Origin: a phage
Length of the DNA: 42,822 bases
Assembly (NCBI GenBank): GCA_018167975.1
Contig: GCA_018167975.1_4333.1
Direction: 5' to 3' (one strand)
Of the stretch, positions 3,369 to 37,046 are shown one piece after another. A program made the position numbers and the translations under genes. Within the stretch, counting starts at the first letter, position 1. Every line of letters begins with the position of its first letter. The notes under the pieces are model-generated. The model had not been told where the DNA came from, searched no databases, and saw nothing but the letters and a program-made list of their open reading frames with translations.

Positions 3369-3397
3369 ATAGTAGCCTATTCTATCTTAGCGTGCAA
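3369..3397 (-). promoter_or_regulatory. Sigma70-like promoter (minus strand): -35 TTGCAC, 17-bp spacer, -10 TACTAT, with AATAG-N4-CTATT palindrome in the spacer
   Basis: rc of 3392-3397 = TTGCAC; rc of 3369-3374 = TACTAT; spacer 17 nt; same design as the promoters at 4831, 26106, 35159 and 37018. Confidence 0.5.
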
Positions 3398-3557
3398 GTA
3401 AATTTTATTGGTGTTTGTATTGTTGCATCTCCTGCAATAGTCGCTTCGATTGTTGCGTTTGGTGAAATAGAACAAAAATGAGAAAAATGATACGCTGCTG
3501 TGTAGCAGCGTAAGTCACAAAGCCAAATAGTAACCTATTGACCTGTTACACCACCTG

Positions 3558-3755
3558 CTACACCAGCGACGGCGGCTCAGGTAACGGCATCCAGTGAGTC
3601 ACTTCATCACGTGAAAACCACCCAACCCCTGTAACATACCAGGCGTCATTTCTATCGTTGAACCATGCCACTCTGCAAACCATATCCATGTCGGTTATTA
3701 TTACGTCACGGCATGCCGTAGGCATCCGCCCACTACACTTAACCCACTCGCTCAT
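3558..3755 (-). CDS. Hypothetical phage protein, DUF551-like (C-terminal HWMPLPEPP)
   Basis: C-terminal WYVTGVGWFSRDEVTHWMPLPEPP resembles the DUF551 pattern common in enterobacterial phages. Confidence 0.45.
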   Translation of the reverse strand: MSEWVKCSGRMPTACRDVIITDMDMVCRVAWFNDRNDAWYVTGVGWFSRDEVTHWMPLPEPPSLV

Positions 3756-3913
3756 AAATCACCTCTCTTCTCAAATGCACCAGCCATTACATTTGCACCA
3801 GCTTTCCACGCCCGCCACGCCAGACGCGTCTTAACGTTCAGGTACTCTTTCTTCGAACCCTTGTTAACCGGCAGGCCCTCGACGACGGCCCACCGTTCAA
3901 ATGCTTCTCTCAT
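3752..3913 (-). CDS. Small hypothetical protein (53 aa)
   Basis: Below track cutoff; ATG at 3911-3913; stop overlaps the ATG of the 3558..3755 gene (ATGA); fills the gap between flanking genes. Confidence 0.3.
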   Translation of the reverse strand: MREAFERWAVVEGLPVNKGSKKEYLNVKTRLAWRAWKAGANVMAGAFEKRGDL

Positions 3914-3916
3914 AAC

Positions 3917-4183
3917 TTAGCCCATCTTCTCTTTAACGTGTACCCAGAATTCACCGCAATACCAACACCACATAAGATTAGGTGTCTCGCGAACCCAACC
4001 GTAATCCCCGCGTGCGCGAATCGGGATAATGCCTTTAATGAAATAATAACCTGTTCGCAGAAACTCAGGGTCGCGCGTCGCGGTGCGCCACATGTTATAA
4101 AACTGCTCCAGCCCGGCACCCCGACGCATGACCCGTACCTTATGAAGGGTGTCAGAGACTTTTTCCAGTTCAGTATTATTCAT
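3917..4183 (-). CDS. Hypothetical protein
   Basis: ORF 3917..4231; ATG at 4181-4183 with GGAG RBS about 10 nt upstream. Confidence 0.4.
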   Translation of the reverse strand: MNNTELEKVSDTLHKVRVMRRGAGLEQFYNMWRTATRDPEFLRTGYYFIKGIIPIRARGDYGWVRETPNLMWCWYCGEFWVHVKEKMG

Positions 4184-4385
4184 AACTAATAACTCCGATA
4201 ACTTTAGATTTCTCGCGCCGGGTGCAACCATGTTCGATGTAGTAGCGCGCCTGCTTGACGCTTTCGCAACGGGTCAGAGTAACCCACCAGAAAAAGCCAA
4301 CGCGAACCTGCACGGCAGGTGTAATTCGTTTCTCACCGAAGGCGGTAACCCACTCTTCGCTAACTATGCGGTATTTACTTAACAC
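4176..4385 (-). CDS. Hypothetical protein
   Basis: ORF 4176..4421; GTG at 4383-4385 preceded by GGGAGG (rc of 4391-4396) at 5-nt spacing. Confidence 0.35.
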   Translation of the reverse strand: MLSKYRIVSEEWVTAFGEKRITPAVQVRVGFFWWVTLTRCESVKQARYYIEHGCTRREKSKVIGVISYE

Positions 4386-4617
4386 GGCAACCTCCCTCAG
4401 AGTCGTCGGCACTGGCATCATGATTCGATGCCGTTGTGAATAACGCTAACCATCTCCAGGTATAAACACCCATACGCCCTTCATACACATCCTCGTCAGT
4501 TACCCGATAATCATCGCCATCATCAGAGGTAACGTACCCATCGATACTTAACGTATAACGCTTTCCTTCTGTGAAGTAATCGCAGAGACTGGTAACGCAA
4601 ATTAATTCTTCCATCAC
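4375..4617 (-). CDS. Hypothetical acidic protein
   Basis: ORF with Asp/Glu-rich middle (TSDDGDDYRVTDEDVYEG); start overlaps the upstream stop. Confidence 0.4.
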   Translation of the reverse strand: MMEELICVTSLCDYFTEGKRYTLSIDGYVTSDDGDDYRVTDEDVYEGRMGVYTWRWLALFTTASNHDASADDSEGGCRVK

Positions 4618-4796
4618 TTCGCCCCTTTGAATTTAAAATTGTTGCCGATGAGTGTTAGCTCGTCTTCACGCACCCCCACGTCAAAGTCCCATTCTGGGTG
4701 CGTGAGATGGTACGACCCTGGAACTTTATTCGGAACTCGTTTAATAATTCCATATTGGCCCTGTACAGTTTTAACCAACTGACCACGTTTAAACAT
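4614..4796 (-). CDS. Hypothetical protein (first gene of leftward accessory operon)
   Basis: ORF 4614..4805; ATG at 4794-4796 preceded by GAGGAG; lies about 30 nt downstream of the leftward promoter at 4831-4859. Confidence 0.45.
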   Translation of the reverse strand: MFKRGQLVKTVQGQYGIIKRVPNKVPGSYHLTHPEWDFDVGVREDELTLIGNNFKFKGAK

Positions 4797-4830
4797 AACC
4801 CTCACTCCTCTGTCTCGTTTCGATAAGTGA

Positions 4831-4859
4831 ATAGTATCCTATTATGTTGGGGTGTGCAA
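4831..4859 (-). promoter_or_regulatory. Sigma70-like promoter (minus strand): -35 TTGCAC, 17-bp spacer, -10 TACTAT, with embedded AATAG-N4-CTATT palindrome
   Basis: rc of 4854-4859 = TTGCAC, rc of 4831-4836 = TACTAT; the 37 nt 4824-4860 are an exact reverse-complement copy of 26105-26141. Confidence 0.55.
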
Positions 4860-5195
4860 GAGAATAGTTACGTTGCCGTTGTGATTCTTTCGTGTAATAG
4901 GATAGCGAGCGAAACGAAACGAACGTGGTGCCGAAGGCACCAAGAGTGAGTGAGTGAGCTTGCGAATCAATAACTTATATCATGTGGTAAAATTTAAATA
5001 GACGGGGGCTTTCTTGCGACTTGCTGTTACTTTGAGGAAACTTAGATACTAACGTTGTCGAAGTGACTCTCAGCGCCCGTCCTTCATTGGCCGGGCTTTG
5101 GTCACCAGAGACTTAATAATAATGTTTCTAAGTAATTCTAAACTAAAGTCCTTCGATACGTTGATTTTACAGCTACATTTTATTTTGTCAACAGG

Positions 5196-5224
5196 TTGTG
5201 TTTAGCTATCGTGGGTGTTATAGT
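5196..5224 (+). promoter_or_regulatory. Candidate early rightward promoter: -35 TTGTGT, 17-bp spacer, -10 TATAGT
   Basis: TATAGT at 5219-5224 (the -10 hexamer shared by the plus-strand promoters at 8656, 10943 and 15053); weak -35; 30 nt upstream of the HTH gene start. Confidence 0.35.
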
Positions 5225-5253
5225 TGTTTCACTTGATAAAGAGGGCGCGTAAA

Positions 5254-5433
5254 ATGACACAGAAAGAAGTAGCAGACTTAATAGGGGTATCTCCTATGAC
5301 GCTTAATCGCTGGTTACGGTCTGGTAAGTTCCCGGAGTGTTGCCGGGTTATTAATGGCTACCGGCAGCCCGGTACTTTTGACCGCGCTACTGTGGAGGAG
5401 TGGATTAAGGAGAACGTGAAAGATGTTAACTAA
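5254..5433 (+). CDS. Small helix-turn-helix DNA-binding protein (AlpA/Xis/MerR-like HTH)
   Basis: MTQKEVADLIGVSPMTLNRWLRSGKFP is a classic HTH segment; ATG at 5254 with GAGGG RBS; first gene of the rightward early operon. Confidence 0.55.
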   Translation: MTQKEVADLIGVSPMTLNRWLRSGKFPECCRVINGYRQPGTFDRATVEEWIKENVKDVN

Positions 5434-5698
5434 ATTCCAGAAACACATATTAATGTGCGCACGCAGACTTACCGAGGCGAACGGTGCTTTTACAGTAGAC
5501 GGGCTTCGGAGATACCGGTTAGATAATTACGGTGTAAACCCGCTTAAACATGCTTTAGATGTTCTCGAGCGGCACGGGGAAATTCTTAATAAAGGAAAGT
5601 TTTATCGGGCTACAAGAGCAACGCCGATTACAGAGAAAGCGAGAAGTATTGGAAAAGTGTTGGTCCCCGAGGGTAATATCTCCCGCGACCTGGAATAA
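5423..5698 (+). CDS. Hypothetical protein
   Basis: ATG at 5423 with AAGGAG 10 nt upstream; overlaps the upstream stop by 11 nt. Confidence 0.5.
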   Translation: MLTKFQKHILMCARRLTEANGAFTVDGLRRYRLDNYGVNPLKHALDVLERHGEILNKGKFYRATRATPITEKARSIGKVLVPEGNISRDLE

Positions 5699-5756
5699 AA
5701 GAAAGCCCCGACGCGGTGAACGCCGAGGCCAAATTACTTGCTGAAGGAAATACAAC

Positions 5757-8027
5757 ATGTCCGATGTAATTTTATCCTACTCGTGGTCTCGTCGCAACGC
5801 GCGGGCAGAGAAAAAGGATATAAACGTCAGAACAACACACACGGCAACACTGGACAACCTGAAAGAGTTAATCCAGCCGCTCGATGCCGTTCGTGACGGA
5901 ATTAACCCGAAGACCGCGCCGGGCTATATCACTGCCGCGTGCGATTCTACGCACAGCACCGTAAAAGACCCGGAAACCGGTGACTTTAAGCAAGCGCGTA
6001 AAGGCTTCTTCTATCGCTGTGATGCGTCTGTAAGCAAATCGTCGCTGGCGTACCTGGACTTCGACAGTGCAACGCCGGAAGAGTATCAGGAAGCGGTGCG
6101 CCTGGTTAAGCGCAGCCGCCGGGCGATGTGCCTCTACACCACGGCATCTCATACCGATGAGTCTCCACGCTTTCGCGTCGTCATGCCACTGGGCCGTCCT
6201 GTTGAAGGTGGTGACATCATCCGCATTCGTCATGGATTGCTGGAGCACTTCTTCGAAGGCATGGGTGCTGACCGCAGCGGGTTCACTCTGTCCCAGCCGA
6301 TGTACCTGCCGCCGGTTGGCTCTCAGGTTATCTGGTCGCGTCGCAATGACCTGATTGACCCGGACGAGTTACTGGAAGGCATCCCGGATTACGAGGTGAG
6401 CAGCGCGTCTGACTACCAGATACCGGAAGAACTGCGCACCTCGTTCACGGATGCGTTCGAAGCACTGGCGTTCGAGTACGGTGGCATCATGACGCCGCGT
6501 GGCCTTAAGATACCAGCTACGCCAGAACACGCAGAGAACTACAGCGACCCGACCCCGCGCCCGGACGACTTCCTGCTGTGTTTCCCGCGCGAGGGGTATG
6601 AAGCGCCGAACGTAACCATGATTCACGACACCGACATTACGGCAACAGAAGGCATGTCACCGAAAGAGGTGTGGAAGTATGCGTGTGATGCGACCGGTCT
6701 GCCGTTCAGTGAGGTCGCTGAGGCTATTGGCTGGGGCGCACGTGAATCTATTTCATGCAGTCTCGATGACCTGGAGGACGACGAGGACTCAGAGGTGGAC
6801 GAGTTACCTGAACCGGTAAAGGCTGATTTCGTCGTCGAGGGGTACATGCCGTCAGATTGTATCTGGGATATCGTCGGGGAATCCGGCACGTACAAATCAT
6901 TCTATACGCTGGGGATGATGTACCTTAGCGCCGCCGGATACCGGTTCGCGGGGGCCGATACCCAGCGTTGCCACCATTTCTATGTCGACGGTGAGGGTGG
7001 CGCTGCTACACGTACCCGTATTGATGCGCTCGCGGCTAAATATGGCGAGGAAGGTAAAGATTATGTACATGTCATTGATATGGGCGAAGTCGGAAAACTG
7101 AAAAACCTGATTAAGCTAATGCGCGAAACTGCGGGCGATGAACCAATCGGCATGGTTGCGTTCGACACCCTTAACCAGACGCTGGCCCTGACGATTGATA
7201 AGTTCGACGAGAACAGTTCATCAACGGCAATCGGTATGGGTAAAGTTATCGCCATCCTGAAAGAAGTACGCGACGCGACTAAAGCCGCGGTAGGCGTTGT
7301 GCACCACACACCGAAAGGCGGAAAGAAAGCCCGAGGTAGCGGCGCTCTGTATGCAGGCGTAGACGTTGAACTGACAATTGAACGTGCCACCGAACGTCAG
7401 ATAAACGTATACCACTCTAAATTTAAGCACGGGCCTCAACAGAAAACGGTTGGCATGGTGTTGGAGTCAGTACAGTTCCGCGAAGCCCCGCCACCGAAAG
7501 AGTACCGCGCGGTTGAGTTCCTCGGTAGCACAGAGGAATACGGCACAATCGTAAACCTCGACCTGCCGGAACCGCACAAGGCGCTTGTGCTGATGCCGTG
7601 GGGCTTCGAACCGTTCAAAACTGACGAGGAGAAAGAGCGGGAAGAAGGGCTGACAAAGGAAGGTAAAGCGGCCATTAAAGAAAAGGTAGGTCAGTTCGAG
7701 AAACTTGATACCAAAGAAGCTACGGTTATTTACGCATTGGGTAAATTGCAGGAGCAGGGTGACGACAAGCGAGGGTTTTCTATGTCAGCTATCGTCAAAG
7801 CCGCGAAAGAAGATAGTTACGGCGTACCAATTAACGCTAATAACGACCTTCGAAAGAAACTGGAAGAGATGCACGAGGCTGGGGTTATCGTCTCGGGTCT
7901 GGATAACAACAACAGACCTATCCCTAAGCAGTACCGGTTGCCGTGGGGTATAAACGACAACAAAATACCGAAGACAATATACGAACCGAATGAGATGTTA
8001 ACAGTGACAGAGGAGGATTTGGAATGA
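5757..8027 (+). CDS. Replication primase-helicase (primase-like N-terminal domain fused to a RecA-like/AAA_25 ATPase domain)
   Basis: 756 aa; N-terminal region with LAYLDFD...CLYTTASHTDESPRFRVVMPLG (prim-pol-like); C-terminal region with GESGTYKS (P-loop-like), VAFDTLNQ and VVHHTPKGG segments typical of RepA/DnaB-type RecA folds; GAAGGAAA RBS. Confidence 0.6.
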   Translation: MSDVILSYSWSRRNARAEKKDINVRTTHTATLDNLKELIQPLDAVRDGINPKTAPGYITAACDSTHSTVKDPETGDFKQARKGFFYRCDASVSKSSLAYLDFDSATPEEYQEAVRLVKRSRRAMCLYTTASHTDESPRFRVVMPLGRPVEGGDIIRIRHGLLEHFFEGMGADRSGFTLSQPMYLPPVGSQVIWSRRNDLIDPDELLEGIPDYEVSSASDYQIPEELRTSFTDAFEALAFEYGGIMTPRGLKIPATPEHAENYSDPTPRPDDFLLCFPREGYEAPNVTMIHDTDITATEGMSPKEVWKYACDATGLPFSEVAEAIGWGARESISCSLDDLEDDEDSEVDELPEPVKADFVVEGYMPSDCIWDIVGESGTYKSFYTLGMMYLSAAGYRFAGADTQRCHHFYVDGEGGAATRTRIDALAAKYGEEGKDYVHVIDMGEVGKLKNLIKLMRETAGDEPIGMVAFDTLNQTLALTIDKFDENSSSTAIGMGKVIAILKEVRDATKAAVGVVHHTPKGGKKARGSGALYAGVDVELTIERATERQINVYHSKFKHGPQQKTVGMVLESVQFREAPPPKEYRAVEFLGSTEEYGTIVNLDLPEPHKALVLMPWGFEPFKTDEEKEREEGLTKEGKAAIKEKVGQFEKLDTKEATVIYALGKLQEQGDDKRGFSMSAIVKAAKEDSYGVPINANNDLRKKLEEMHEAGVIVSGLDNNNRPIPKQYRLPWGINDNKIPKTIYEPNEMLTVTEEDLE

Positions 8028-8338
8028 ATATCTACGATTTTATAGATAACCCGTTTAAGGCAGTGAAGGCAGGATACCGCCCGTCATACCTGACATGTGT
8101 TTCCGCGGTAAGCGGCCACTGGTGGACTTTTTGGGTTTACACGGCGGGGATTTTTGCGGAGTTTAAAGACATTTTAGATATGACGCTGGCGGAGATTATA
8201 AAGTGCCTTTTCAAGTTGATTATCGCGATAGCTATTGTAATAAGTTTTCCTGTAAGTGTGTGGTTTCTGGCCTGGATTCAGTACCTGAACGTGCAACACA
8301 CGGTTAAGAATTTGGAAGAACTCGATAAGTTGAAATAA
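8024..8338 (+). CDS. Hypothetical membrane protein
   Basis: ATGA overlap with the primase-helicase stop; hydrophobic segments HWWTFWVYTAGIFA and LIIAIAIVISFPVSVWFLAWI. Confidence 0.5.
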   Translation: MNIYDFIDNPFKAVKAGYRPSYLTCVSAVSGHWWTFWVYTAGIFAEFKDILDMTLAEIIKCLFKLIIAIAIVISFPVSVWFLAWIQYLNVQHTVKNLEELDKLK

Positions 8339-8362
8339 AAAGAAAGGGGCGTTAAGCCCCTT
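8333..8362. terminator. Bidirectional hairpin terminator between convergent genes
   Basis: Stem AGGGGC (8345-8350) / GCCCCT (8356-8361), loop GTTAA; A-rich tract upstream on the plus strand gives a U-tract for the minus-strand (Cro-like gene) transcript. Confidence 0.5.
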
Positions 8363-8567
8363 CACCGAACGCCAGCCACTTGGCGTCTACTTCCAGCACT
8401 TCCGCCAGTTTAAACAGCGTCGCCGGGCGGACGTCCTGAGTTACTCCAAGTGCCAGCTGGTTAATTACGCCCTGGGAAACGCCAGCCAGGACAGCAAGAC
8501 GGCGCTGGGAGATGCCGAGTTCTTTACGACGTTGTTCTACACGGATGCCTAGTTCAGATGGTTGCAT
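8352..8567 (-). CDS. Cro/CI-type (XRE-family) HTH transcriptional regulator
   Basis: 71 aa; ELGISQRRLAVLAGVSQGVINQL is a canonical XRE HTH; AAGGAG RBS; divergently transcribed from the rightward early promoter at 8632-8661. Confidence 0.7.
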   Translation of the reverse strand: MQPSELGIRVEQRRKELGISQRRLAVLAGVSQGVINQLALGVTQDVRPATLFKLAEVLEVDAKWLAFGEGA

Positions 8568-8598
8568 GTCAATTACTCCTTAGTCAGTTGATATGTGA

Positions 8599-8627
8599 AT
8601 AGTACCATATTAATTATTTTAGAAAAG
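8599..8627 (-). promoter_or_regulatory. Candidate promoter of the Cro-like regulator gene (extended -10 TGGTACTAT, weak -35)
   Basis: rc of 8599-8607 = TGGTACTAT (TGn extended -10); spacer region carries a degenerate copy of the AATAG palindrome; back-to-back with the plus-strand promoter. Confidence 0.4.
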
Positions 8628-8631
8628 CCCA

Positions 8632-8661
8632 TTGACAACATGAATAGTTCGCTATTATAGT
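8632..8661 (+). promoter_or_regulatory. Sigma70-like promoter: -35 TTGACA, 18-bp spacer, -10 TATAGT, palindrome AATAGTTCGCTATT in spacer
   Basis: TTGACA 8632-8637, TATAGT 8656-8661; AATAG-N4-CTATT at 8643-8656; followed by GAGGAG RBS and the ATG at 8693. Confidence 0.6.
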
Positions 8662-8692
8662 TAGCGCATACCAAACGAGAGGAGAGAAACAA

Positions 8693-9214
8693 ATGTTAGA
8701 CCAATTCTTAAAATTACTGGAACGTTTCGTAGTTGCACATGAACTGATTGCTGCGAATAGTGCGAAACCACAAAACAGTAAATCAGTAGGTGAATTGACG
8801 GTTGACGTCGCGGTAACGGGGGTAGAAACAGTTAAAAAAGAACTGGCTAAAGCACTTGAAGAAGTCGAGAAGGCGAAAGAAACCCCGGTGGAAGGCGAAG
8901 ACATCATCGACACTAAACCGGCAGAAGAAGAGAAGCCGAAACGCAAGCCGCGTAAAGCTAAAGTAGAGGAACCGATGCCAGAACCGGAAGAAGAGAAAGA
9001 AGAGGTCGATTATAAGTCTCTGCGTGACCAGATTCAGGCTATCGACGATGCGATTAACGAAGGGCCCAGCGATGCCGCGTGCGATGACTCTGATGAACTG
9101 CTGGAAGAGTTCACCGGCAAGAAGATGAAGATTGCCGCGATTAAAGACGAAGACCTGGCTGAATACTTGGAACGCCTGACAGCGATCAAGAACAAGTATT
9201 TCGAAGAAGAATAA
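8693..9214 (+). CDS. Hypothetical acidic protein (Glu/Lys-rich, coiled-coil-like)
   Basis: 173 aa, highly charged (EEEKPKRKPRKAKVEEPMPEPEEEKEE); GAGGAG RBS; no recognisable catalytic motif. Confidence 0.55.
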   Translation: MLDQFLKLLERFVVAHELIAANSAKPQNSKSVGELTVDVAVTGVETVKKELAKALEEVEKAKETPVEGEDIIDTKPAEEEKPKRKPRKAKVEEPMPEPEEEKEEVDYKSLRDQIQAIDDAINEGPSDAACDDSDELLEEFTGKKMKIAAIKDEDLAEYLERLTAIKNKYFEEE

Positions 9215-9218
9215 CTAT

Positions 9219-9243
9219 CCCGCGGCCTTCGGGCCGCTTTAAC
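9219..9243 (+). terminator. Weak hairpin terminator or attenuator
   Basis: Stem GCGGCC (9222-9227) / GGCCGC (9232-9237), loop TTCG, followed by only TTT. Confidence 0.35.
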
Positions 9244-9257
9244 TGAGGGTCGGAATT

Positions 9258-9530
9258 ATGATTTACCAACTCTACCGCGCTATCGACAGGCGAGATAACA
9301 CGGAGGCGTTGTGGCTGTTGCGCGCACCGTCCGGCGCGCACCAGATGGAAGAGATGGCGTACTTAGGCAGAGTACCGCGGCCTAAAGATATAGGCCGTCA
9401 CGTGTCGCAGATTAAGCGCACGACTTTCGCAAAACCTGACTTTTATGTCTTCGAGTCTATGTATAGCTGGGCTATGCACTGCGAACATAAGACTCGGCAT
9501 TTAATTGACCAGTGGGAGAACAGGGTATGA
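9258..9530 (+). CDS. Hypothetical protein
   Basis: ATG at 9258 with GAGGG RBS; 90 aa; no recognisable motif. Confidence 0.5.
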   Translation: MIYQLYRAIDRRDNTEALWLLRAPSGAHQMEEMAYLGRVPRPKDIGRHVSQIKRTTFAKPDFYVFESMYSWAMHCEHKTRHLIDQWENRV

Positions 9531-10768
9531 TTTTAAAGGAACGCGGCGGTAATAACGATGTACACGCCTTACTATCGCCATCTGGCGCTAAAAAATGGCT
9601 TAGCTGTGCTGCATCCCTGGCCTGTGAAAAAGATATTCCTAACACGTCCGGTAAATCAGCCGTTACCGGGACTGCGTGCCACACTATAGCTGAGGTCCAT
9701 CTGAACCAGTACATCAGAGGCACTGCGTTGCCGTTAGAGCGGGAAGTTGGCGCGTACGTACTGGATGAAGGTAAAGGCCAGATTAAGGCGCTAATTAGCC
9801 CGATGAAAGGCGCGGTACTGATTACGGCGGACATGATTGAGCAGGTGCGCAAGTACACAGACTATTGCAAAGAGATTATCGATGTAGCGACTTACGCCAA
9901 ACTGGAAATGCGTGTCAATCTTACTGAGGTATTGCATCCGGGGTATGAAGGCGTTGAGACGTTCGGAACCGCTGACCTTGTTGCCGTTCAGGAACTAGCC
10001 AACACCGACGAGCACATGCTAATCATCGGCGACCTGAAAACAGGACGACATCGTGTCGAAGCGAAAGAAAACAAGCAGCTTATGCTTTACGCTCTCGGTG
10101 TTTATCGCCGACTCAAGAGACGTTATAACATCACAGTTGTTCGCCTGGTCATCTTTCAGCCATACGCTGGCGGTGCATCGGAGTGGGACATCTCGGTTGA
10201 AGGTCTGGAACTGTTTGCTAAGTTCGCACAGAAACGTGCGCTGTTGGCTCTTGATGCGTATTTCCGTGGCAAGAAGAACCTGAAAGCGTCGGACTTCAGG
10301 CCATCTGTAGACGGTTGCCAGTGGTGCCGTTTCTCAGAACAATGCGCCGCGCGTACAAAAACAGTTAACTCTGTACTGGCGGAAGAACTTGAGGACGATT
10401 TTGCACTGGAACTGACGCCTGAGCAACTCGTATCTGAGTATGAGAAGTTGCCGCTGTTGCGCCAGCACATCGACAAGGTTGAAAAAGCTATGGCCGCCGC
10501 GTTGCATTCCGGTAAGAAAGTGCCGGGGTATAAGATGGTAGAAGGTCGCCCGGGTAATCGTGCGTGGAAAGACACGGAGAAAGTAGCAGAACTCTACGGC
10601 GACAAGCTGACTAAAGAAGTGCTCATGACGCCTACCGAAGCAGTTAAAGTAATACCGGAAGAAGAACTGAAAGACTTCATTACCCGTAAACCGGGAGCGC
10701 CATGCGTTACAACGACAGACGACAAACGTCCTGAGTGGAATCAGGTGACAGAGGAGGATTTAGAATGA
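9527..10768 (+). CDS. PD-(D/E)XK nuclease, Cas4/RecB-like exonuclease with 4-Cys Fe-S cluster motif
   Basis: ORF 9512..10768; ATG at 9527 (ATGA overlap, GGGAGAA RBS); catalytic-type motifs ADLVAV, IIGDLKTG, QLMLYAL; Cys in LSCAASLAC plus C-x2-C-x5-C (CQWCRFSEQC). Confidence 0.7.
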   Translation: MILKERGGNNDVHALLSPSGAKKWLSCAASLACEKDIPNTSGKSAVTGTACHTIAEVHLNQYIRGTALPLEREVGAYVLDEGKGQIKALISPMKGAVLITADMIEQVRKYTDYCKEIIDVATYAKLEMRVNLTEVLHPGYEGVETFGTADLVAVQELANTDEHMLIIGDLKTGRHRVEAKENKQLMLYALGVYRRLKRRYNITVVRLVIFQPYAGGASEWDISVEGLELFAKFAQKRALLALDAYFRGKKNLKASDFRPSVDGCQWCRFSEQCAARTKTVNSVLAEELEDDFALELTPEQLVSEYEKLPLLRQHIDKVEKAMAAALHSGKKVPGYKMVEGRPGNRAWKDTEKVAELYGDKLTKEVLMTPTEAVKVIPEEELKDFITRKPGAPCVTTTDDKRPEWNQVTEEDLE

Positions 10769-10923
10769 TTCGTAAAATTAAATATTGGGGGCTGGTTTCC
10801 CCTTTTATCGTAATAGGCGCGTTTACTTCGTCTATCGCGTGGGTAGACCGTAAACTTAGCGACAGTGAAACAATCGAGCGTTATTTTCTTTGGTGTGAGA
10901 AAGTTTCTAAAATTAAGCGTTGA
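10765..10923 (+). CDS. Small membrane protein (52 aa, 1 TM)
   Basis: ATGA overlap with the nuclease stop; GGAGG RBS embedded in the upstream coding sequence; hydrophobic WGLVSPFIVIGAFTSSIAW. Confidence 0.4.
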   Translation: MIRKIKYWGLVSPFIVIGAFTSSIAWVDRKLSDSETIERYFLWCEKVSKIKR

Positions 10924-10948
10924 CACCTGAATAGTTAGCTATTATAGT
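10920..10948 (+). promoter_or_regulatory. Sigma70-like promoter: -35 TTGACA, 17-bp spacer, -10 TATAGT, palindrome AATAGTTAGCTATT in spacer
   Basis: TTGACA 10920-10925, TATAGT 10943-10948; upstream of the SSB-like gene. Confidence 0.6.
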
Positions 10949-11006
10949 TCTAATCACTGGCCGGGCAGTTCCCGGAGTAAACGAAACTTAAAAGCGAGAA
11001 ATCAAG

Positions 11007-11633
11007 ATGGGTATTAAACTGAATCTGCGTAAAGTAAACACTGCATGGGTTAACGTATTCGAACGCGAAAAAGACCGTGAAAACGATGATGGCTCAATCA
11101 CTAAAGGTCAGTACAGCGCGACTATCATCCTGCCGTCTGACCACGCTCAAATAGACGCGCTTTACGACACTGTTTATGCTGTAGTTGAAGAAGCGTTGGG
11201 TGCAGCCGCTGCCGAGAAGTGGATGAAGTCCAACTACGGCGAAGGTAAGCACATGGATAAATGCGCGATTAAAGACATTGCCGAGCGCGACAATCCATTT
11301 GAAGACTTCCCGGAAGGCTTCTACTTCAAAGCGAAAGCGCAGAAACAGCCGCTGATTGTAACCTCTAAAAAAGGTGAGACTCAGGTGGAGCAGGACTTCA
11401 ATGTAGACGGAGAACAGATTGAAGGTGAACAGGTTTACAGCGGCTGCGTGGCCAACGTAAGCGTCGAAATCTGGTTTAGCCAGAAATACAAAGTCCTCGG
11501 CGTTAACCTGCTGGCCATTAAATACGTCGGCGAAGGTAAAGCGTTCGGTGGTTCTAAAGTCGCCGCAAGTGTCGATGACCTGGAAGACGACGAAGAAGAT
11601 GAAGCACCGCGCCGCGAACGTCGCCGTCGTTAA
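11007..11633 (+). CDS. Putative single-stranded DNA-binding protein (T7 gp2.5-like architecture, acidic C-terminal tail)
   Basis: 208 aa; C-terminal GVNLLAIKYVGEGKAFGGS followed by acidic DDLEDDEEDE tail, reminiscent of gp2.5-type SSBs; own promoter and terminator. Confidence 0.5.
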   Translation: MGIKLNLRKVNTAWVNVFEREKDRENDDGSITKGQYSATIILPSDHAQIDALYDTVYAVVEEALGAAAAEKWMKSNYGEGKHMDKCAIKDIAERDNPFEDFPEGFYFKAKAQKQPLIVTSKKGETQVEQDFNVDGEQIEGEQVYSGCVANVSVEIWFSQKYKVLGVNLLAIKYVGEGKAFGGSKVAASVDDLEDDEEDEAPRRERRRR

Positions 11634-11652
11634 TATCTGAATCAATTTAACT

Positions 11653-11677
11653 AAGGCCCTTCATTGGGCCTTTTTAC
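11653..11677 (+). terminator. Rho-independent terminator
   Basis: Stem AGGCCC (11654-11659) / GGGCCT (11666-11671), loop TTCATT, followed by TTTTT. Confidence 0.6.
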
Positions 11678-11687
11678 CGGAGTCAGA

Positions 11688-12161
11688 ATGGAACATATAA
11701 AAGATTTTCTTAGCTATAACCGAGAAACCGGAATATTCACATGGATACAACCTACGTACAGACGAGGGAAACCTGGAGACATTGCGGGATGCATTAATAG
11801 TAGCGGATACTGGCGCATACCTTATATGGGTAGATATTACATGGCCCACAGGCTTGCTTGGTTTTTCGAGTACGGTGAATGGCCTGAGGGGCCGCTTGAC
11901 CACATAAACCGTGACAGGTTAGACAATAGGATTTCTAACCTAAGGAAAGCAACCACCGCAGATAATGTGCGAAACGCTAAAAATAAGGGAGCTAGAACGG
12001 GAGTTAAGGGAGTAGTTAAAACCGGCAACCGATTTTATGGGCGGGTACATTTTAACTACAAAAGTTATAATGCGGGTAGCTACGGAACTCTTGAAGAAGC
12101 AGAAAGCGCTGTAAAGAAATTAAGAGAAAAACTGCATAAGGAATTTTATTGCCATGACTAG
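11688..12161 (+). CDS. HNH homing endonuclease (HNH_3 catalytic motif plus AP2-like DNA-binding domain)
   Basis: ORF 11664..12161; ATG at 11688 with GGAG RBS; AHRLAWFFEYGEWPEGPLDHINRDRLDNRISNLR (HNH) and GVKGVVKTGNRFYGRV...GTLEEAESA (AP2-like). Confidence 0.75.
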   Translation: MEHIKDFLSYNRETGIFTWIQPTYRRGKPGDIAGCINSSGYWRIPYMGRYYMAHRLAWFFEYGEWPEGPLDHINRDRLDNRISNLRKATTADNVRNAKNKGARTGVKGVVKTGNRFYGRVHFNYKSYNAGSYGTLEEAESAVKKLREKLHKEFYCHD

Positions 12162-14424
12162 TTTATTATACCTGGATACCGAGACATTCTCCGAAGCAGA
12201 CTTAAAGAAAGTCGGGTCGTATGCGTATGCGGAGCACCCAACGACAGAGGTTATAATTTGTACATATGCCGTTGATGACGGCCCTGTAGAAGTATGGGAT
12301 TGCACTTCCGAACCAGTAATGCCAATAAGCCTCCGCGTAGCGCTCCGTAATGTTATGCGTGGACGTATGAAAATCGTGGGCCATAACTTTTTAATGTTCG
12401 ATCGTCTAATCCTGAAACACTGCTGGGACTTTGATATCCCGGTAAGCAACACCATTGATACGATGATTTGGGCGTTTCGTCACGCGCTGCCAGGGTCACT
12501 TGATGCGCTGTGTGAAGTGCTTGGCGTGTCCGCTGATAATGCGAAAGACAAACGCGGCAAGGCGCTGATTCAGCGTTTCTCTAAACCGACACCGAAGAAC
12601 TATAAAATCCGCCGCTACACCGCCGAAACGCACCCGGACGAATGGGCGCTGTTCATCAAGTACGCCGTGAGCGACATCACAGCGATGCGTGAAGTCTTCC
12701 ATAAGCTGCCACGTTGGGGTAACTCCGATTTCGAGGACCGTGTACTTGAACTTGACCAGTTAATCAACGACCGAGGCTTTTTTGTTGATGCAGCTCTTGC
12801 TGAGGCAGCGGTAGCGGCAGTTGAACGCCACAAGCAAGAGCTAAAAAACGAGGCCCGCGCGAAATTCGGGGGGAAACTAACGGGCAAAGACTTCCTGCCA
12901 ATCCTTCGGGAGCTGGCACCGGCCTACAATATCTATAATGCGCAGAAAGCGACGCTCGAAGGTTTGTTAGAGGACGACGACTTGCCCGACGATGCGCGTA
13001 CAATCATTGAGATGCGCCTCGGCGCGGCCTCCACGGCGTCAACAAAATATAAGCCGCTCCTGTTAGGACGGTCCAAAGACGGACGACGCCGTGGTTGCAT
13101 CCAGTATGGCGGCGCGAAGCGCACTTTACGGTTTGCGGGTAAAGGGTTCCAGCCGCAGAACCTGTCGCGCGGGTACTACCACGACGACCCGACTAACGAG
13201 GAAAAGAAACTTGTACGCCAGCCGTGGGAGTCCGACGAAGACTGGAACCGCAGGCTTAACCCGCTATCATTTGGCATCAATTTGCTTTTAAAGGGTCGGG
13301 CGCATCGCCGTTTCGATGTATCTAAGCTGACAGCTTCAACTGTTCGCAGCTGCATCATCCCTGAAAAGGGTAATAAGTTGCTCGTTGCCGACTACTCAAA
13401 CGTGGAAGGGCGCGGGTTGGCCTGGGCCGCCGGGGAGACATCCGCGCTTGAGACCTTCCGAGCAGGGATTGATATCTATTGCGCCACCGCGGGCAAGATG
13501 TTTGGCATGGACCCCGTAGAGCTAAAAGCCACCCGTAAGGACCTACGTCAGGTCGGGAAATGTTGCGAACTCGGCCTCGGCTACGAGGGGGGCGTAGGGG
13601 CCTTTATGACTATGGCTAAAACTTACGGGCTGGACCTCTTTAAAATGACGGAGACAATGCGGGGCACGTTCCCTGATCACATTTGGGCGGCTACTGCCAG
13701 GGGCTATGAATGGGCGCGGATTCAGGAGGCTAAGAGACCCCCGAAACCCGGTAAAAAGGATGAACGGGCCTCTTATGTGCTGCCTAAAGAAGTCTGGCGC
13801 ACCTGCGATGCTATCAAGCGCATGTGGCGTGAGGCCCATCCAGAAACAGTGAAATTCTGGAACGACCTTAAGGATTCGGTAATTGCCGCAATCAGAAATC
13901 CGGGACGAGAGTTTTGGGCGGGGGCCAGAGTCCGCCTTAACGGCGACAGAGCTATTCGCATCTGGCGTACTAAAGAGAAAGATAGTCAGGGTAGATTTGT
14001 GCCGGGTTGGTGGTTGTGTGTAGAACTGCCGTCAGGGCGCGTCATGTCGTACCCCGGCATAGGTCTGAGCGTTACTAAAGAAACTGACGAGGATGGGCGC
14101 GTAACAACTAACGTTCGCATTAAGTACCAGGGCGAAAACCAGACCACCCGCCAGTGGACAACTTTGTACACACACGGCGGAAAATTGTGTGAAAACATCA
14201 TCCAGGCGTTGTGCCGTGATTTACTGGTTAACGGACTCCTGACGGTCGAGGCGGCGGGCTACCCAATTGTACTCCACGTACATGACGAATGTGTTGCCGA
14301 AACGCCAGACACGCCAGAGTACACGGTTAAAGAGATGGGTGACCTGCTATGCTCATTACCCGAATGGGCCGAAGGGTTCCCGTTAACATGGGCTGGGGAA
14401 GAGGTGTACCGTTATGCTAAGTAA
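12154..14424 (+). CDS. DNA polymerase, family A (Pol I-like) with 3'-5' exonuclease domain
   Basis: 756 aa; exo motifs YLDTETFS, HNFLMFD, YAVSDITAM; polymerase motifs DYSNVEGRGLAW (A), RKDLRQVGKCCELGLGYEGG (B), VLHVHDECV (C). Confidence 0.85.
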   Translation: MTSLLYLDTETFSEADLKKVGSYAYAEHPTTEVIICTYAVDDGPVEVWDCTSEPVMPISLRVALRNVMRGRMKIVGHNFLMFDRLILKHCWDFDIPVSNTIDTMIWAFRHALPGSLDALCEVLGVSADNAKDKRGKALIQRFSKPTPKNYKIRRYTAETHPDEWALFIKYAVSDITAMREVFHKLPRWGNSDFEDRVLELDQLINDRGFFVDAALAEAAVAAVERHKQELKNEARAKFGGKLTGKDFLPILRELAPAYNIYNAQKATLEGLLEDDDLPDDARTIIEMRLGAASTASTKYKPLLLGRSKDGRRRGCIQYGGAKRTLRFAGKGFQPQNLSRGYYHDDPTNEEKKLVRQPWESDEDWNRRLNPLSFGINLLLKGRAHRRFDVSKLTASTVRSCIIPEKGNKLLVADYSNVEGRGLAWAAGETSALETFRAGIDIYCATAGKMFGMDPVELKATRKDLRQVGKCCELGLGYEGGVGAFMTMAKTYGLDLFKMTETMRGTFPDHIWAATARGYEWARIQEAKRPPKPGKKDERASYVLPKEVWRTCDAIKRMWREAHPETVKFWNDLKDSVIAAIRNPGREFWAGARVRLNGDRAIRIWRTKEKDSQGRFVPGWWLCVELPSGRVMSYPGIGLSVTKETDEDGRVTTNVRIKYQGENQTTRQWTTLYTHGGKLCENIIQALCRDLLVNGLLTVEAAGYPIVLHVHDECVAETPDTPEYTVKEMGDLLCSLPEWAEGFPLTWAGEEVYRYAK

Positions 14425-14780: not shown

Positions 14781-15091
14781 CCCCGGAAGGCAAGATTCAG
14801 AAATACGCAAAAGAGCAATTCGAGGCCATTGGTGGCCTCGTTCGCAAGATGGCATTTGAAGGTCGGCGAGCCGCTATGGACCTCCTGGTAATTCTCCCCG
14901 GAGGCATCATCTGGTTCGTTGAGGTGAAGAAAGACGAAAATACGAAGCCGGAGCCACACCAGCTACGCGAGCATGAAAGATTCCGAAAACGTGGCGCGAA
15001 TGTTTTTGTCGTTGGTTCGTTTAAACAGGTTGACACCCTAATAGCAGACTATTATAGTAAACACATACCCCAACAATATAAGGAATTATAA
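14777..15091 (+). CDS. VRR-NUC domain nuclease (PD-(D/E)XK fold)
   Basis: ORF 14762..15091; ATG at 14777; DLLVILPGGIIWFVEVKK (D...E-V-K catalytic pattern) and the small size fit VRR-NUC. Confidence 0.55.
   Translation: MTPEGKIQKYAKEQFEAIGGLVRKMAFEGRRAAMDLLVILPGGIIWFVEVKKDENTKPEPHQLREHERFRKRGANVFVVGSFKQVDTLIADYYSKHIPQQYKEL
15030..15058 (+). promoter_or_regulatory. Sigma70-like promoter: -35 TTGACA, 17-bp spacer, -10 TATAGT, palindrome AATAGCAGACTATT in spacer
   Basis: TTGACA 15030-15035, TATAGT 15053-15058; lies inside the 3' end of the VRR-NUC gene, upstream of the 15093 gene. Confidence 0.55.
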
Positions 15092-15092
15092 A

Positions 15093-15347: not shown

Positions 15348-15349
15348 TA

Positions 15350-15372: not shown

Positions 15373-15386
15373 TAAGGAATTGAGAA

Positions 15387-34839: not shown

Positions 34840-35090
34840 GTTTCTCCTTTCTCGATAAGTAAAGCCCCGCCATAAAGCGGGGCGCTAGTCCTTATCATTT
34901 AAACATAGAAACGGCGTAATCTCAGTAAACCAGTTACTTTTTACACAAGCAATAGAGTATGGCCCTTCCGAACGCGTCAGCGTAACTACACTCAGGACTT
35001 ACGTCCCGCTTCGTTACCTGCCCGCGCCGCGGTCGCTTGTTCATACTTCACAAGCTCAGGTGAAGCTTAGCATATTTTTAGTGAAAAGTC

Positions 35091-35106
35091 AACTATTCGA
35101 ATAGTT
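35091..35106. promoter_or_regulatory. Perfect 16-bp palindrome AACTATTCGAATAGTT (candidate regulator binding site)
   Basis: Self-complementary; shares the GAATAG/CTATTC half-site with the promoter-embedded palindromes; lies in the 380-bp intergenic region upstream of Rz and the 35222 moron. Confidence 0.4.
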
Positions 35107-35158
35107 TATTCCGACATTTACAATTGAGGGTAATAACTGGAATACGTAAACAAATAGT

Positions 35159-35187
35159 TTGCACACCCCAACATAATAGGGTACTAT
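35159..35187 (+). promoter_or_regulatory. Sigma70-like promoter: -35 TTGCAC, 17-bp spacer, -10 TACTAT, palindrome AATAGGGTACTATT
   Basis: TTGCAC 35159-35164, TACTAT 35182-35187; near-identical to the promoters at 26106 and 4831 (rc). Confidence 0.6.
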
Positions 35188-35221
35188 TCATTACATCGAA
35201 ACGAGAGATAAGGAATTTAGA

Positions 35222-35441
35222 GATGAACAAAGCTACCGCAAACGTGGTCCGCGCTATCGAAGAACTTTACGGCATTGATATCGCGAGCCGTGTGCTTATC
35301 GGAAACAAACGTAACTTTTTTACCTTTTGCACGGATGGTATGGAAGAGAACGATTTTAACAACGTTCAACGTTTTGCTAACGAACACGGTCTACGCAACG
35401 AGCCAGCAGGTTACAAGAAATTCGCTATATTCTTTAAATAA
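35222..35441 (+). CDS. Hypothetical protein encoded by a rightward moron
   Basis: ORF 35124..35441; ATG at 35222 with AAGGAA RBS; own promoter and terminator; opposite in orientation to the flanking head genes. Confidence 0.5.
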
Positions 35442-35470
35442 AACTAAGGCCCCGAAAGGGGCCTTTTATC
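35442..35470. terminator. Bidirectional Rho-independent terminator between convergent genes
   Basis: AAGGCCCC-GAAA-GGGGCCTT (35446-35465), U-tracts on both strands. Confidence 0.65.
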
Positions 35471-35930
35471 ATTCCGGCTTAGTGACCTTCGCCGCTTTAC
35501 TCACAGCCTCTACACCATCGGCATCAGTAACTTTAACGAAGTATTCGCCCGCAGCGTTAACCGTCAGAGACAAAGCCTCTTCCGGGGCGTTTACCACTTC
35601 CTTACCGTCTTTGTACCAGGTCAGCGCATACGGTGCTTTGCCTGCCTTAACTTCGACAGTGATAGTTGCGCTGCCGTCTGCCAGTTCAGCGTCTTTCGGT
35701 TGCACAGAGAAATACACATCGCCTGCGTCCACCAGATACGGAATCTCGTAAAGCATACCCGCTGCGGGTAGTGCAATACCGGTTTTATCTGCAAAAGGCA
35801 TGTCGTCTACTGGTGTACCTAGTACACTTTCGTCCCCAATAGACACCACGTTCTCACCGGAGCCAGACACACGAGCAAACTGGACTACACGACGTGAAGG
35901 CACATCAGTTACTTTGAAAAAGCCCATCAT
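35469..35930 (-). CDS. Ig-like domain structural protein
   Basis: ATITVEVKAGKAPYALTWYKDGKEV...AGEYFVKVTDADG shows Ig-like pattern; ATGA-type coupling with the head morphogenesis gene. Confidence 0.5.
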   Translation of the reverse strand: MMGFFKVTDVPSRRVVQFARVSGSGENVVSIGDESVLGTPVDDMPFADKTGIALPAAGMLYEIPYLVDAGDVYFSVQPKDAELADGSATITVEVKAGKAPYALTWYKDGKEVVNAPEEALSLTVNAAGEYFVKVTDADGVEAVSKAAKVTKPE

Positions 35931-36973
35931 TAATCCCCTTTCAGATAATCAGCGACACGTTTATCGAGTTCCGCCATCTGCTTAAGCGTGAGCGGATTCC
36001 CGAAACCATCTACAGATATTACGCGAAACTCTTCCGGCGATATACCGCTGTTACGGAAAATCTTACCGCGAACAGGGCCGAGTGCCTCATCGATAAACCA
36101 CGCCGGTTGTTGTTTCAGGAACTCGTAATAGGTTGTGTCCGCGCTTACCTGGGTTCCACCTTCTGCACCCTTAGCTGCGCGTTTTGCGCCCTTATCGAGG
36201 AAGTCGAACTCTGAACTGATTACCGGTGCCGTGGTGCTTCTGCACCCAAAATGGGCCGGAGGCATCGGCCCTTTCCCAATTTCCCACGTCATTCCGTCTC
36301 TCGCCCTGCAAATCGTACTGGTACGGCTGTCCAGTGTTGACACCCACTCGTACCTCTCGATGATATCGTCGTTCTGGCGGTACGTCTCGTTACGTGCTTC
36401 GTTGGATACGTGAGACAGCGCGGTGCGGATTACTGTAGCAGCGTATTTCTCTGATACGTCAGCCAGCCCACCTTTACCGACTACTTCTGTAACAATCTGT
36501 CGTGTTGTCTTACCCTGAACAAAGCCCATCTTAACTCCGGTTACAAGACGTGCTACTTCGGTTTCACCCCATCCCGACATCAGTTTAGTGAAGTCAACAG
36601 GCTTGCCACTTAACGATAACGGCTGAAACTCGGCAGCAGCCCACACCTGTTCGGCGGTAGGAGTAACAAATTCCGTGTCTACGTTGGTGGCCAGCGTCTT
36701 TACGTTCCACTCAGCCTCATACGCCGCCAGCTCCTTAAGGTCTTCTGTCAGCTTTGTTTGCCAGTCACCTGTAAGCCCGGTCAGTGCTTCTTCCAGGTCG
36801 CGTAATAGTTTATTCAGTCGCGAGGTGCTTCGCCCGTCGTCACCGAATAGCAGCACCTGCCGTTTGATTTCATCTCGCATTTCCTGAATGAAGGGTGTGA
36901 GGTCTTTCACTTCCCCGGACGCGGTGCGTTGCATCCATATCTGGTGACTGATTAGAGATGTAAGTAAGCTCAT
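35930..36973 (-). CDS. Head morphogenesis protein (SPP1 gp7 / Mu F-like minor capsid protein)
   Basis: ORF 35930..37030; ATG at 36971-36973 with GGAGG RBS; C-terminal TSTICRARDGMTWEIGKGPMPPAHFGCRSTT is the family hallmark. Confidence 0.75.
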   Translation of the reverse strand: MSLLTSLISHQIWMQRTASGEVKDLTPFIQEMRDEIKRQVLLFGDDGRSTSRLNKLLRDLEEALTGLTGDWQTKLTEDLKELAAYEAEWNVKTLATNVDTEFVTPTAEQVWAAAEFQPLSLSGKPVDFTKLMSGWGETEVARLVTGVKMGFVQGKTTRQIVTEVVGKGGLADVSEKYAATVIRTALSHVSNEARNETYRQNDDIIERYEWVSTLDSRTSTICRARDGMTWEIGKGPMPPAHFGCRSTTAPVISSEFDFLDKGAKRAAKGAEGGTQVSADTTYYEFLKQQPAWFIDEALGPVRGKIFRNSGISPEEFRVISVDGFGNPLTLKQMAELDKRVADYLKGD

Positions 36974-37017
36974 ATGCCCTCCTATAGTACCGCCAGTGTA
37001 ACGCATAAAAATAGTAT

Positions 37018-37046
37018 TTGCAGGCACCAATATAATAGGGTACTAT
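37018..37046 (+). promoter_or_regulatory. Sigma70-like promoter: -35 TTGCAG, 17-bp spacer, -10 TACTAT, palindrome AATAGGGTACTATT
   Basis: TTGCAG 37018-37023, TACTAT 37041-37046; followed by CAGGAGGG RBS and the ATG at 37072. Confidence 0.55.

Follow-up and report, generated by a model that had tools for sequence, protein, structure and literature searches.

The promoters of the phage genome analysed here (NCBI GenBank assembly GCA_018167975.1, contig GCA_018167975.1_4333.1; the whole stretch of 42,822 nucleotides is called the window below) carry a recurrent dyad, AATAG-N4-CTATT (AATAGNNNNCTATT), that we read as an operator. With a probability that we put at about 0.55, the most likely binder of this dyad in sigma70-type promoters is a dimeric 71-amino-acid (aa) protein resembling 434 Cro, which would turn the corresponding transcription units down. 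Both the operator function and its link to the Cro-like protein appear well supported by comparison with related phages, and this comparison favours a separate protein-binding function over a mere promoter consensus; which protein binds, and that regulation is negative rather than positive, is what we infer from the sequences. The over-representation of the dyad itself is confirmed: it is real, statistically solid and conserved.

Nine exact copies are present in the window, compared with 0.04 ± 0.20 expected from 100 dinucleotide shuffles, and 13 matches against 1.0 expected are found when one mismatch is tolerated. When all 5-Nx-5 palindromes of the window were enumerated without bias, the AATAG dyad ranked first with its 9 copies, the best count of any palindrome in Markov shuffles being only 2-3. 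Seven of the nine lie outside open reading frames (ORFs; P = 2.7e-7, given that 93% of the genome is coding), the eighth is found within 50 nt of the end of the VRR-NUC gene, and the only ORF overlapped by the ninth is a doubtful one of 45 aa. Every promoter dyad is located 25-60 nt upstream of a same-strand ATG with a Shine-Dalgarno sequence, and several follow terminators. The motif scan of the window and of related phages that the initial annotation had proposed thus finds the dyad enriched in the former and present at homologous promoters of Kagunavirus and Jerseyvirus. Note also that a one-mismatch dyad at 19899-19912 (AATAGTTTTCTATC), inside a large tail-protein gene and without promoter context, fits the approximately one chance match expected.

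The window is assigned to Kagunavirus (subfamily Guernseyvirinae) by megablast/blastn searches, which match it to hundreds of Kagunavirus and Jerseyvirus records, the best relatives being ~90% identical. Kagunavirus comprises E. coli siphoviruses with genomes of roughly 43 kb. When its two ends are joined, the window yields a terminator that is intact in relatives, and it is therefore a complete, circularly permuted genome.

Promoter classes carrying the dyad

Two oriented promoter classes, both of the sigma70 type, are distinguished by the position of the dyad (Table 1). In class A (TTGACA-N4/5-AATAGnnnnCTATT-ATAGT; dyads starting at 8643, 10930 and 15040 on the plus strand), which heads the replication operons, the dyad fills a spacer of 17-18 bp and is centred at about -18.5, the -10 hexamer TATAGT begins at the last T of the dyad, and 11/12 consensus positions are matched. 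In class B (TTGCAC-N10-AATAGGnTACTATT-CA; dyads at 26122, 35175 and 37034 on the plus strand and at 3368 and 4830 on the minus strand, with a degenerate member at 8598 before the cro-like gene), the -10 hexamer TACTAT is the right arm itself (dyad positions 8-13), which places the centre at about -12.5; the -35 is TTGCAC (3/6) or TTGCAG, the spacer measures 17 bp, and 7/12 consensus positions are matched. An automatic promoter scorer gives tied alternatives at 3368 and 4830, where the class B reading is the one shared across the members. A third class (C) is proposed tentatively, in which a one-mismatch dyad centred at about -33.5 contains the -35 TTGACT; its sites are conserved in relatives, where they are annotated as 'host promoters', and the one-mismatch dyad at 42805-42792 is kept in Kagunavirus and Jerseyvirus relatives. 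As predicted promoters, the dyad sites combine -35 and -10 hexamers with a spacing of 17 ± 1 bp and a correct orientation before genes.

All nine promoters proposed in the initial annotation are present, namely those at 8632-8661, 10920-10948 and 15030-15058 (TTGACA, spacer 17-18, TATAGT, 11/12), those at 26106-26134, 35159-35187 (TTGCAC) and 37018-37046 (TTGCAG) with TACTAT at spacer 17, and the minus-strand copies at 3369-3397, 4831-4859 and, in degenerate form (AATATGGTACTATT, weak -35), 8599-8627. Its description of a dyad lying between -35 and -10 holds for the three TTGACA promoters, but not for the two thirds of the sites that belong to the TTGCAC class, where the right arm overlaps the -10. 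Its list also lacked a tenth dyad (3526-3539) and two imperfect dyads that contain a -35 (42792-42805 and 35084-35097, minus strand). The tenth dyad, a perfect but orphan copy without a -35, is missing in the close relatives SZH-1 and fBC-Eco01, and a function for it is doubtful.

The dyad is absent from the promoter of the HTH_17/helicase operon (~5196-5224) and from a strong leftward promoter at 5191-5164. The latter, a near-consensus sigma70 promoter (TTGACA-16-TAAAAT, minus strand), reads into ~230 nt (region 4915-5191) devoid of a convincing ORF and ending at a terminator (4942-4926). Its transcript may be a small RNA or encode a very small protein; it has no Rfam match, as is the case for the window as a whole, and its fold z-score is -0.1.

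Lineage variants of the dyad and its candidate binders

The promoter of the SSB-like gene is informative, since the leader downstream of it is conserved and served to find its orthologs, for whose parsing only the -35 and -10 were used; the dyad played no part in their selection. A logo of all dyad-containing sites was dropped as circular, these sites having been chosen by the dyad, and as a 1-nt indel blurred the alignment when the offset from the leader was kept fixed, the cores were re-parsed on -35/-10. Among 17 unique Kagunavirus/Jerseyvirus cores, the left arm AATAG is kept in 15 and the right arm CTATT in 16, a constraint equal to that on the -35 and -10 hexamers, whereas the linker from the -35 to the dyad occurs in 10 variants and the central N4 in 9. 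The class A arms sit at spacer positions for which the sigma70 polymerase has no base-specific requirement. In addition, the register of the dyad varies, with centres at about -18.5, -15.5 and -12.5 accompanying the -10 hexamers TATAGT, TATTAT/TATTGT and TACTAT, respectively (window, SETP3 and AH01), and possibly at -33.5, a shift that would not be expected of a fixed polymerase-recognition element.

At all 47 Kagunavirus/Jerseyvirus loci recovered via the Cro-like protein, AATAG with a gap of 4 is the top palindrome, and loci whose Cro-like protein is <50% identical have 0-1 AATAG dyads. The Pantoea phage AH01, a complete Guernseyvirinae genome, contains zero AATAG dyads and instead has 5 exact copies of AATAC-N4-GTATT plus several one-mismatch copies. 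These fill the same slots, flanking the cro-like gene, in a moron promoter (with the TTGCAC-N10 geometry) and before early operons, and the class B -10 becomes TAGTAT, matching the altered arm. Two metagenomic contigs (L059 and L062) each carry 3 copies of yet another dyad, TTAGC-N2-GCTAA, 4-8 nt past a TTGAC -35. Since both arms are altered in step across lineages, the variants fit a dimeric binder of changed specificity, and not a polymerase preference or duplication. In a scan of viral contigs for TGAATAG-N4-CTATTAT, two or more copies were found in Kagunavirus contigs alone, the single matches in unrelated contigs being at chance level, and the motif was not seen moving with the cro-like gene into other backbones.

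The candidate that best fits such a binder is the product of the cro-like gene, a helix-turn-helix (HTH) protein of the Xre/Cro family (Pfam HTH_3, E = 5.1e-12) with homologs in every lineage examined. A profile search of the PDB gives 434 Cro as its best match (E = 3.5e-13, residues 5-69), followed by 434 repressor, C.AhdI and P22 c2; a single-sequence AF2 model was of low confidence (pLDDT 67.8) and was not used. 434 Cro likewise has 71 aa, and in the 14-bp operators to which it binds the outer bases are conserved and the centre is not contacted, a geometry that the 5-N4-5 dyad shares. Two dyads of the window lie at -89 and -44 from the ATG of the cro-like gene, the imperfect one at 8598 and the perfect one at 8643 being separated by 45 bp centre to centre. 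In most lineages examined, among them the window, SETP3, AH01 and L059, the cro-like gene has dyads of the lineage's own type beside it. As a rule the perfect copy lies at about -90 to -110 and a second, imperfect one at about -45, and the Klebsiella phage VLCpiS11a has essentially this site alone. The interpretation given in the initial annotation is thus partly supported: its core, an operator that serves a single dimeric regulator, is backed by the conservation of the arms, the variable register, the symmetric lineage variants and the proximity to cro. As to its two candidate regulators, the Cro-like protein fits by its similarity to 434 Cro and its presence in all lineages. The HTH_17 protein (Pfam HTH_17, E = 3e-9), whose homolog is missing in AH01, Tsm2, L059, VLCpiS11a and St162, is disfavoured because three of these, AH01, Tsm2 and L059, bear dyads.

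Several observations weigh against an operator for the Cro-like protein. Tsm2 has dyads, none of them beside its cro-like gene, and St162/Cornellvirus-like phages have kept a cro-like gene (39% identity) but show no over-represented dyad. The three dyad types (AATAG, AATAC and TTAGC) do occur in lineages with differing recognition helices; this covariation is, however, confounded with phylogeny, and any lineage-specific protein or host factor would therefore give the same pattern. Moreover, Kagunavirus, Jerseyvirus and Tsm2 share one dyad in spite of unlike recognition helices (VSQGAINQL, VSQSLITHL and VSQGMLNHL, respectively). The flanks of every Kagunavirus dyad are asymmetric, a GAATAG half being paired with a TAATAG half (the extended motif is TGAATAGTnnnCTATTAT, e.g., 8641-8658 and 26120-26137), in an orientation that follows transcription in class A and runs against it in class B; in Jerseyvirus, by contrast, the sites show symmetry (TAATAG-N4-CTATTA). 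This consistent asymmetry in Kagunavirus is not explained by a symmetric homodimer. Two class B promoters 21 kb apart (4824-4860 and 26105-26141, in inverted orientation) are perfectly identical over 37 bp (CTTGCACACCCCAACATAATAGGATACTATTCACTTA), and as class B copies are identical over up to this length, part of the copy number comes from duplication of promoter cassettes. Finally, RNA-seq of the Kagunavirus phage K1B4 (gene-level time courses) identified only four early genes, one of which is an HTH gene (PMC12645636) that probably corresponds to the cro-like gene, judging by its position after the helicase gene. In this coarse time course the HTH gene peaks early and the replication genes are 'middle' or 'late' (PMC12645636), which is not a clean fit to a simple late shut-off.

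Some of these observations would be accommodated if the dyad were the operator of another protein, be it a host transcription factor through which the phage senses the state of its host or a phage early protein, for which the '13.88 kDa' protein (173 aa, encoded at 8693-9214), HTH_17 and some small, unannotated protein are candidates. We hold this to be unlikely, even though all of the evidence for a dimeric site applies to it equally and the sharing of one dyad by phages with different Cro-like recognition helices, together with the position of the Tsm2 dyads, speaks in its favour. The gene for the 13.88-kDa protein also adjoins operators and is conserved in all lineages, but its product has no recognisable DNA-binding domain, and the HTH_17 protein suffers from the absences listed above. 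A host factor is difficult to reconcile with the fact that Jerseyvirus and Cornellvirus-like phages both infect Salmonella, whereas of these two only Jerseyvirus has the dyad; to our knowledge, no E. coli regulator has such a dyad as its consensus.

Somewhat less probable again is the idea that no regulator is involved and that the motif is simply the preferred promoter sequence, as the initial annotation offered as an alternative, and was duplicated as a cassette together with morons, its symmetry being a by-product of -10-like sequences (CTATT resembling TACTAT and TATTAT). The program PHIRE flagged the motif as a repeated 'promoter', class B copies share 30-37 bp that include positions without obvious function, and the right arm doubles as the -10 or abuts it in every class. 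The 37-bp identity is evidence of promoter cassettes spreading by duplication, and inversion or an exchange of modules could take place at this inverted repeat. Nevertheless, the left arm, for which a polymerase needs no specific bases, is conserved at the level of the hexamers beside variable neighbours; the flanks of classes A and B are unrelated and the dyad is kept in both; and its register moves by 3-6 bp between promoters. In five or more AH01 promoters both arms have changed symmetrically (G to C in one, C to G in the other), which neither duplication nor polymerase preference predicts. The comparative evidence thus favours an operator instead.

It is improbable that the dyad binds a phage protein which activates or re-targets the host polymerase, in the manner of MotA or MerR, and so switches on middle genes. 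The poor -35 of class B (TTGCAC, 3/6) would suit such a mechanism, as would the K1B4 RNA-seq, with the HTH gene early and most other genes middle; class A promoters, however, are already near consensus (11/12) with optimal spacers. Dyad centres at -12.5 to -18.5 overlap polymerase contacts, and activation tied to a particular face of the helix is not compatible with a register that varies. Promoters of the MerR type have over-long spacers of 19-20 bp that contain the dyad, and those of the window measure 17-18 bp.

Further candidates were rejected. Warman et al. reportedly described bidirectional promoters whose symmetry arises from two opposed -10 elements; in the window the reverse -10-like hexamers lack a properly spaced -35, except possibly at 26156-26128, and the geometry differs. 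A role as an RNA hairpin is dismissed on the grounds that transcription is predicted to start downstream of the arms and that the stem would consist of 5 AT-rich pairs, and the likeness of an ACTAG half-site to the TrpR operator is judged coincidental. In St162, an alternative dyad (TATATTA-N6-TAATATA) occurs in 2 copies, within the null range, and was not used.

Gene layout, moron cassettes and leaders

The layout of the window was inferred from the annotated relatives SZH-1 (L001), SETP3 (L002) and fBC-Eco01 (L003). Small early genes and the lysis genes occupy positions 1-4805, where they are read leftward (minus strand), and are followed by a rightward replication block (5224-17341) that encodes HTH_17, primase-helicase, nuclease, SSB-like protein, DNA polymerase, VRR-NUC and helicase, and within which the cro-like gene lies on the minus strand. 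The structural genes are on the minus strand and are broken up by three small plus-strand 'moron' cassettes.

A terminator family, AAGGCCCC-N4-GGGGCCTT, has four copies (0 expected) at 17320-17339, 27937-27956, 35446-35465 and 37322-37341, each at a convergent gene junction and most with T-runs on both sides. As these terminators stand at the cassette ends, a moron cassette consists of a class B promoter, a variable cargo and a conserved bidirectional terminator. The cargo behind conserved promoters is highly variable: the 81-aa ORF at 37072-37317 (plus strand) has no tblastn homolog in five relatives, although its promoter and terminator are conserved, and fBC-Eco01 and SETP3 have different genes behind the orthologous promoter. 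Several small early ORFs (regions 3917-4421, minus strand, and 8024-8338, plus strand) likewise gave no tblastn match in the five relatives. A class B dyad promoter precedes the largest moron operon, whose first gene (26176-26367, plus strand; Pfam Imm_superinfect, E = 6e-14) encodes a superinfection-immunity protein; the homolog of this gene in K1B4 was scored as late (PMC12645636).

Three further elements were noted in leaders and promoters. The first is a leader motif, AACGAGA, found ~12-20 nt past the -10 and just before the Shine-Dalgarno sequence in five dyad-promoter leaders, with similar motifs in leaders of SETP3, Tsm2 and AH01. The genome as a whole shows no enrichment of it (10 copies, with 5.4 expected), yet half of its copies lie in dyad-promoter leaders, and it could be a translational or RNA-processing signal. 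The second is the 5' leader of the SSB-like gene (10955-10982, plus strand; CACTGGCCGGGCAGTTCCCGGAGTAAAC), which includes a 5-bp CCGGG/CCCGG hairpin and is nearly invariant among Kagunavirus, Jerseyvirus, St162-like and phiEap-2-like phages despite the divergence of the upstream promoter. Its fold is not unusually stable (z = +1.0), and it may be a translational operator for autoregulation of SSB. The third, a conserved block in the promoter divergent from the cro-like gene (AAAGTGCTTGCA, i.e., a -35 TTGCA with 7 upstream bases), is common to Jerseyvirus, AH01, phiEap-2-like and St162-like phages, L059 and Tsm2, and more loosely to VLCpiS11a (L002, L054, L056, L059, L084, L085 and L005), Kagunavirus having GCCCATTGACA in its place; the block could be an UP-like element or the site of a second factor.

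Table 1. Dyad promoters of the window, other dyads, candidate regulator genes and associated features; promoters and the genes they drive are predicted.
Feature	Position	Strand	Sequence elements	Genes driven or remarks
Class A promoter	8632..8661	+	-35 TTGACA 8632-8637; dyad AATAGTTCGCTATT 8643-8656; -10 TATAGT 8656-8661	8693-9214 ('13.88 kDa protein') and nuclease operon; divergent from cro-like gene
Class A promoter	10920..10948	+	TTGACA; dyad AATAGTTAGCTATT 10930-10943; TATAGT	SSB-like gene 11007-11633, DNA polymerase
Class A promoter	15030..15058	+	TTGACA; dyad AATAGCAGACTATT 15040-15053; TATAGT	15093-15347 and helicase 15575-16999; within last 50 nt of VRR-NUC gene
Class B promoter	26106..26135	+	TTGCAC; dyad AATAGGATACTATT 26122-26135; -10 TACTAT 26129-26134 in right arm	Moron operon: superinfection-immunity protein 26176-26367, phosphatase-like 26406-27536
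Class B promoter	35159..35188	+	TTGCAC-N10-AATAGGGTACTATT	Small moron gene 35226-35441
Class B promoter	37018..37047	+	TTGCAG-N10-AATAGGGTACTATT	Moron gene 37072-37317
Class B promoter	3368..3397	-	TTGCAC 3397-3392; dyad 3381-3368; -10 TACTAT 3374-3369	Leftward operon from ATG 3337: small genes, lysis genes
Class B promoter	4830..4859	-	TTGCAC 4859-4854; dyad 4843-4830	Leftward early small genes from ATG 4796
Promoter of cro-like gene	8598..8627	-	Imperfect dyad AATATGGTACTATT (left arm 4/5); -10 TACTAT 8604-8599; weak -35	cro-like gene
Orphan perfect dyad	3526..3539		AATAGTAACCTATT; no -35	Between stop of ORF 3558-3755 (-) and terminator 3512-3491
Class C promoter (tentative)	42772..42805	-	Imperfect dyad ACTAGTTGACTATT 42805-42792 containing -35 TTGACT; -10 TATATT 42777-42772	nin-like/terminase operon; 'Host promoter6' in fBC-Eco01 annotation
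Class C promoter (tentative)	35064..35097	-	Imperfect dyad AATAGTTGACTTTT 35097-35084 containing -35 TTGACT; -10 TAAGCT 35069-35064	Upstream of spanin, scaffold and capsid genes; 'Host promoter1' in fBC-Eco01 annotation
cro-like gene	8352..8567	-		71-aa HTH_3 (Xre/Cro family) protein; proposed dyad binder
HTH_17 gene	5254..5433	+		Second candidate
Moron cassettes	26176-27932, 35226-35441, 37072-37317	+		Between structural genes
Conserved bidirectional terminator	35446-35465			Closes moron gene 35226-35441
AACGAGA	3351-3357, 4813-4819, 42753-42759	-		Dyad-promoter leaders
AACGAGA	8674-8680, 35200-35206	+		Dyad-promoter leaders

A proposed circuit and its relation to known systems

If the dyad is an operator for the Cro-like protein, the following circuit may be envisaged. 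After injection, host RNA polymerase would fire the near-consensus class A promoters of the replication genes, as well as the class B promoters of the leftward early genes and of the three moron cassettes. The Cro-like protein would accumulate from its own weak promoter with its imperfect operator, and its dimer would then fill the perfect operators (centres at about -18.5 in class A and -12.5 in class B). Because these operators overlap the spacer and the -10, occupancy would exclude the polymerase, and the replication, early-left and moron units would be turned down; at a higher level, the protein would also limit its own synthesis. A far-reaching extension, which we offer as speculation and do not expect to hold, is that this one protein controls practically all host-type promoters (those of early, replication and moron genes, with the terminase and capsid units reached via imperfect sites overlapping the -35) and acts as the single timer of infection, its specificity having switched at least twice in the subfamily (AATAG, AATAC and TTAGC). 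If this were true, 'heteroimmune' groups would exist among lytic phages, co-infecting relatives could cross-repress or escape one another, and a natural set of orthogonal repressor/operator/promoter parts would be at hand.

Even the simpler circuit would be of use. Kagunavirus and Jerseyvirus phages are widely isolated, and their use in therapy and in the biocontrol of E. coli and Salmonella has been proposed, yet their transcription programme has received hardly any study. An operator would explain how the moron cassettes, including the superinfection-immunity gene, are tied to the phage programme, and the natural specificity variants would be useful for studying repressor-operator co-evolution or as orthogonal parts. 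The question reduces to one protein of 71 aa and one site of 14 bp. What is proposed is a tidy and fairly ordinary phage control circuit, which leaves general principles unchanged.

The repeat family is already published as sequence, under a mistaken functional label. The description of fBC-Eco01 lists seven 'phage promoters' found with PHIRE (consensus tgAATAGTa-ccTATTat-T) and ascribes them to a phage-encoded RNA polymerase (PMC9825357; 2023), and these sites are annotated in GenBank OM272052.1. The same 20-mers, including TAATAGGGTACTATTCATTA, appear as 'predicted conserved promoter sequences' in Table S4 of the Golestan paper (PMC7203180; 2020). The label of a phage-RNA-polymerase promoter fails because the phages encode no such polymerase: none is found in the annotated relatives, and the largest ORFs of the window are those for tail, tape-measure, helicase and DNA polymerase proteins. 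Reading the motif as an operator would thus correct the published annotation. The palindrome, the two classes and the link to a regulator are not discussed in the PHIRE-based papers or in the literature searched, and literature on MB78 promoters and on a Jerseyvirinae promoter consensus gave nothing usable.

Among known systems, 434 Cro provides the closest parallel. The candidate regulator of the window is a 71-aa single-domain HTH_3 protein with 434 Cro as its best PDB match, and its predicted operator is a 14-bp dyad (within the 14-18 bp range of this type) whose outer arms are conserved while the central 4 bp vary freely. The putative operators overlap with promoters, a perfect and a weaker one being located in the divergent region beside the cro-like gene. 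The resemblance does not extend to a lambdoid cI-Cro immunity region. Guernseyvirinae phages of the genus Kagunavirus are reported to be strictly lytic, with no lysogeny genes in published genomes (PMC7203180, PMC9825357), and neither a cI-like partner nor an integrase gene is annotated in close relatives or found among the window ORFs compared with them. Differently from 434, moreover, the dyads are not confined to an immunity region but occur at nine or more promoters genome-wide, including those of morons in the structural block, and the half-site, whose binding is predicted from sequence, is unrelated to the ACAA of 434.

Control of many dispersed sites by one regulator is known from the C1 operators of P1, the gp71 'stoperators' of mycobacteriophage L5 and the conserved inverted repeats of phiC31. 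With these the window shares sites that are scattered over the genome and serve many transcription units. P1, L5 and phiC31 are temperate phages, however, and their regulators serve as maintenance repressors; asymmetric sites are found in P1 and L5, and the L5 stoperators act inside transcribed regions; the sites of the window are symmetric and are located within promoters, only the orphan dyad falling outside one.

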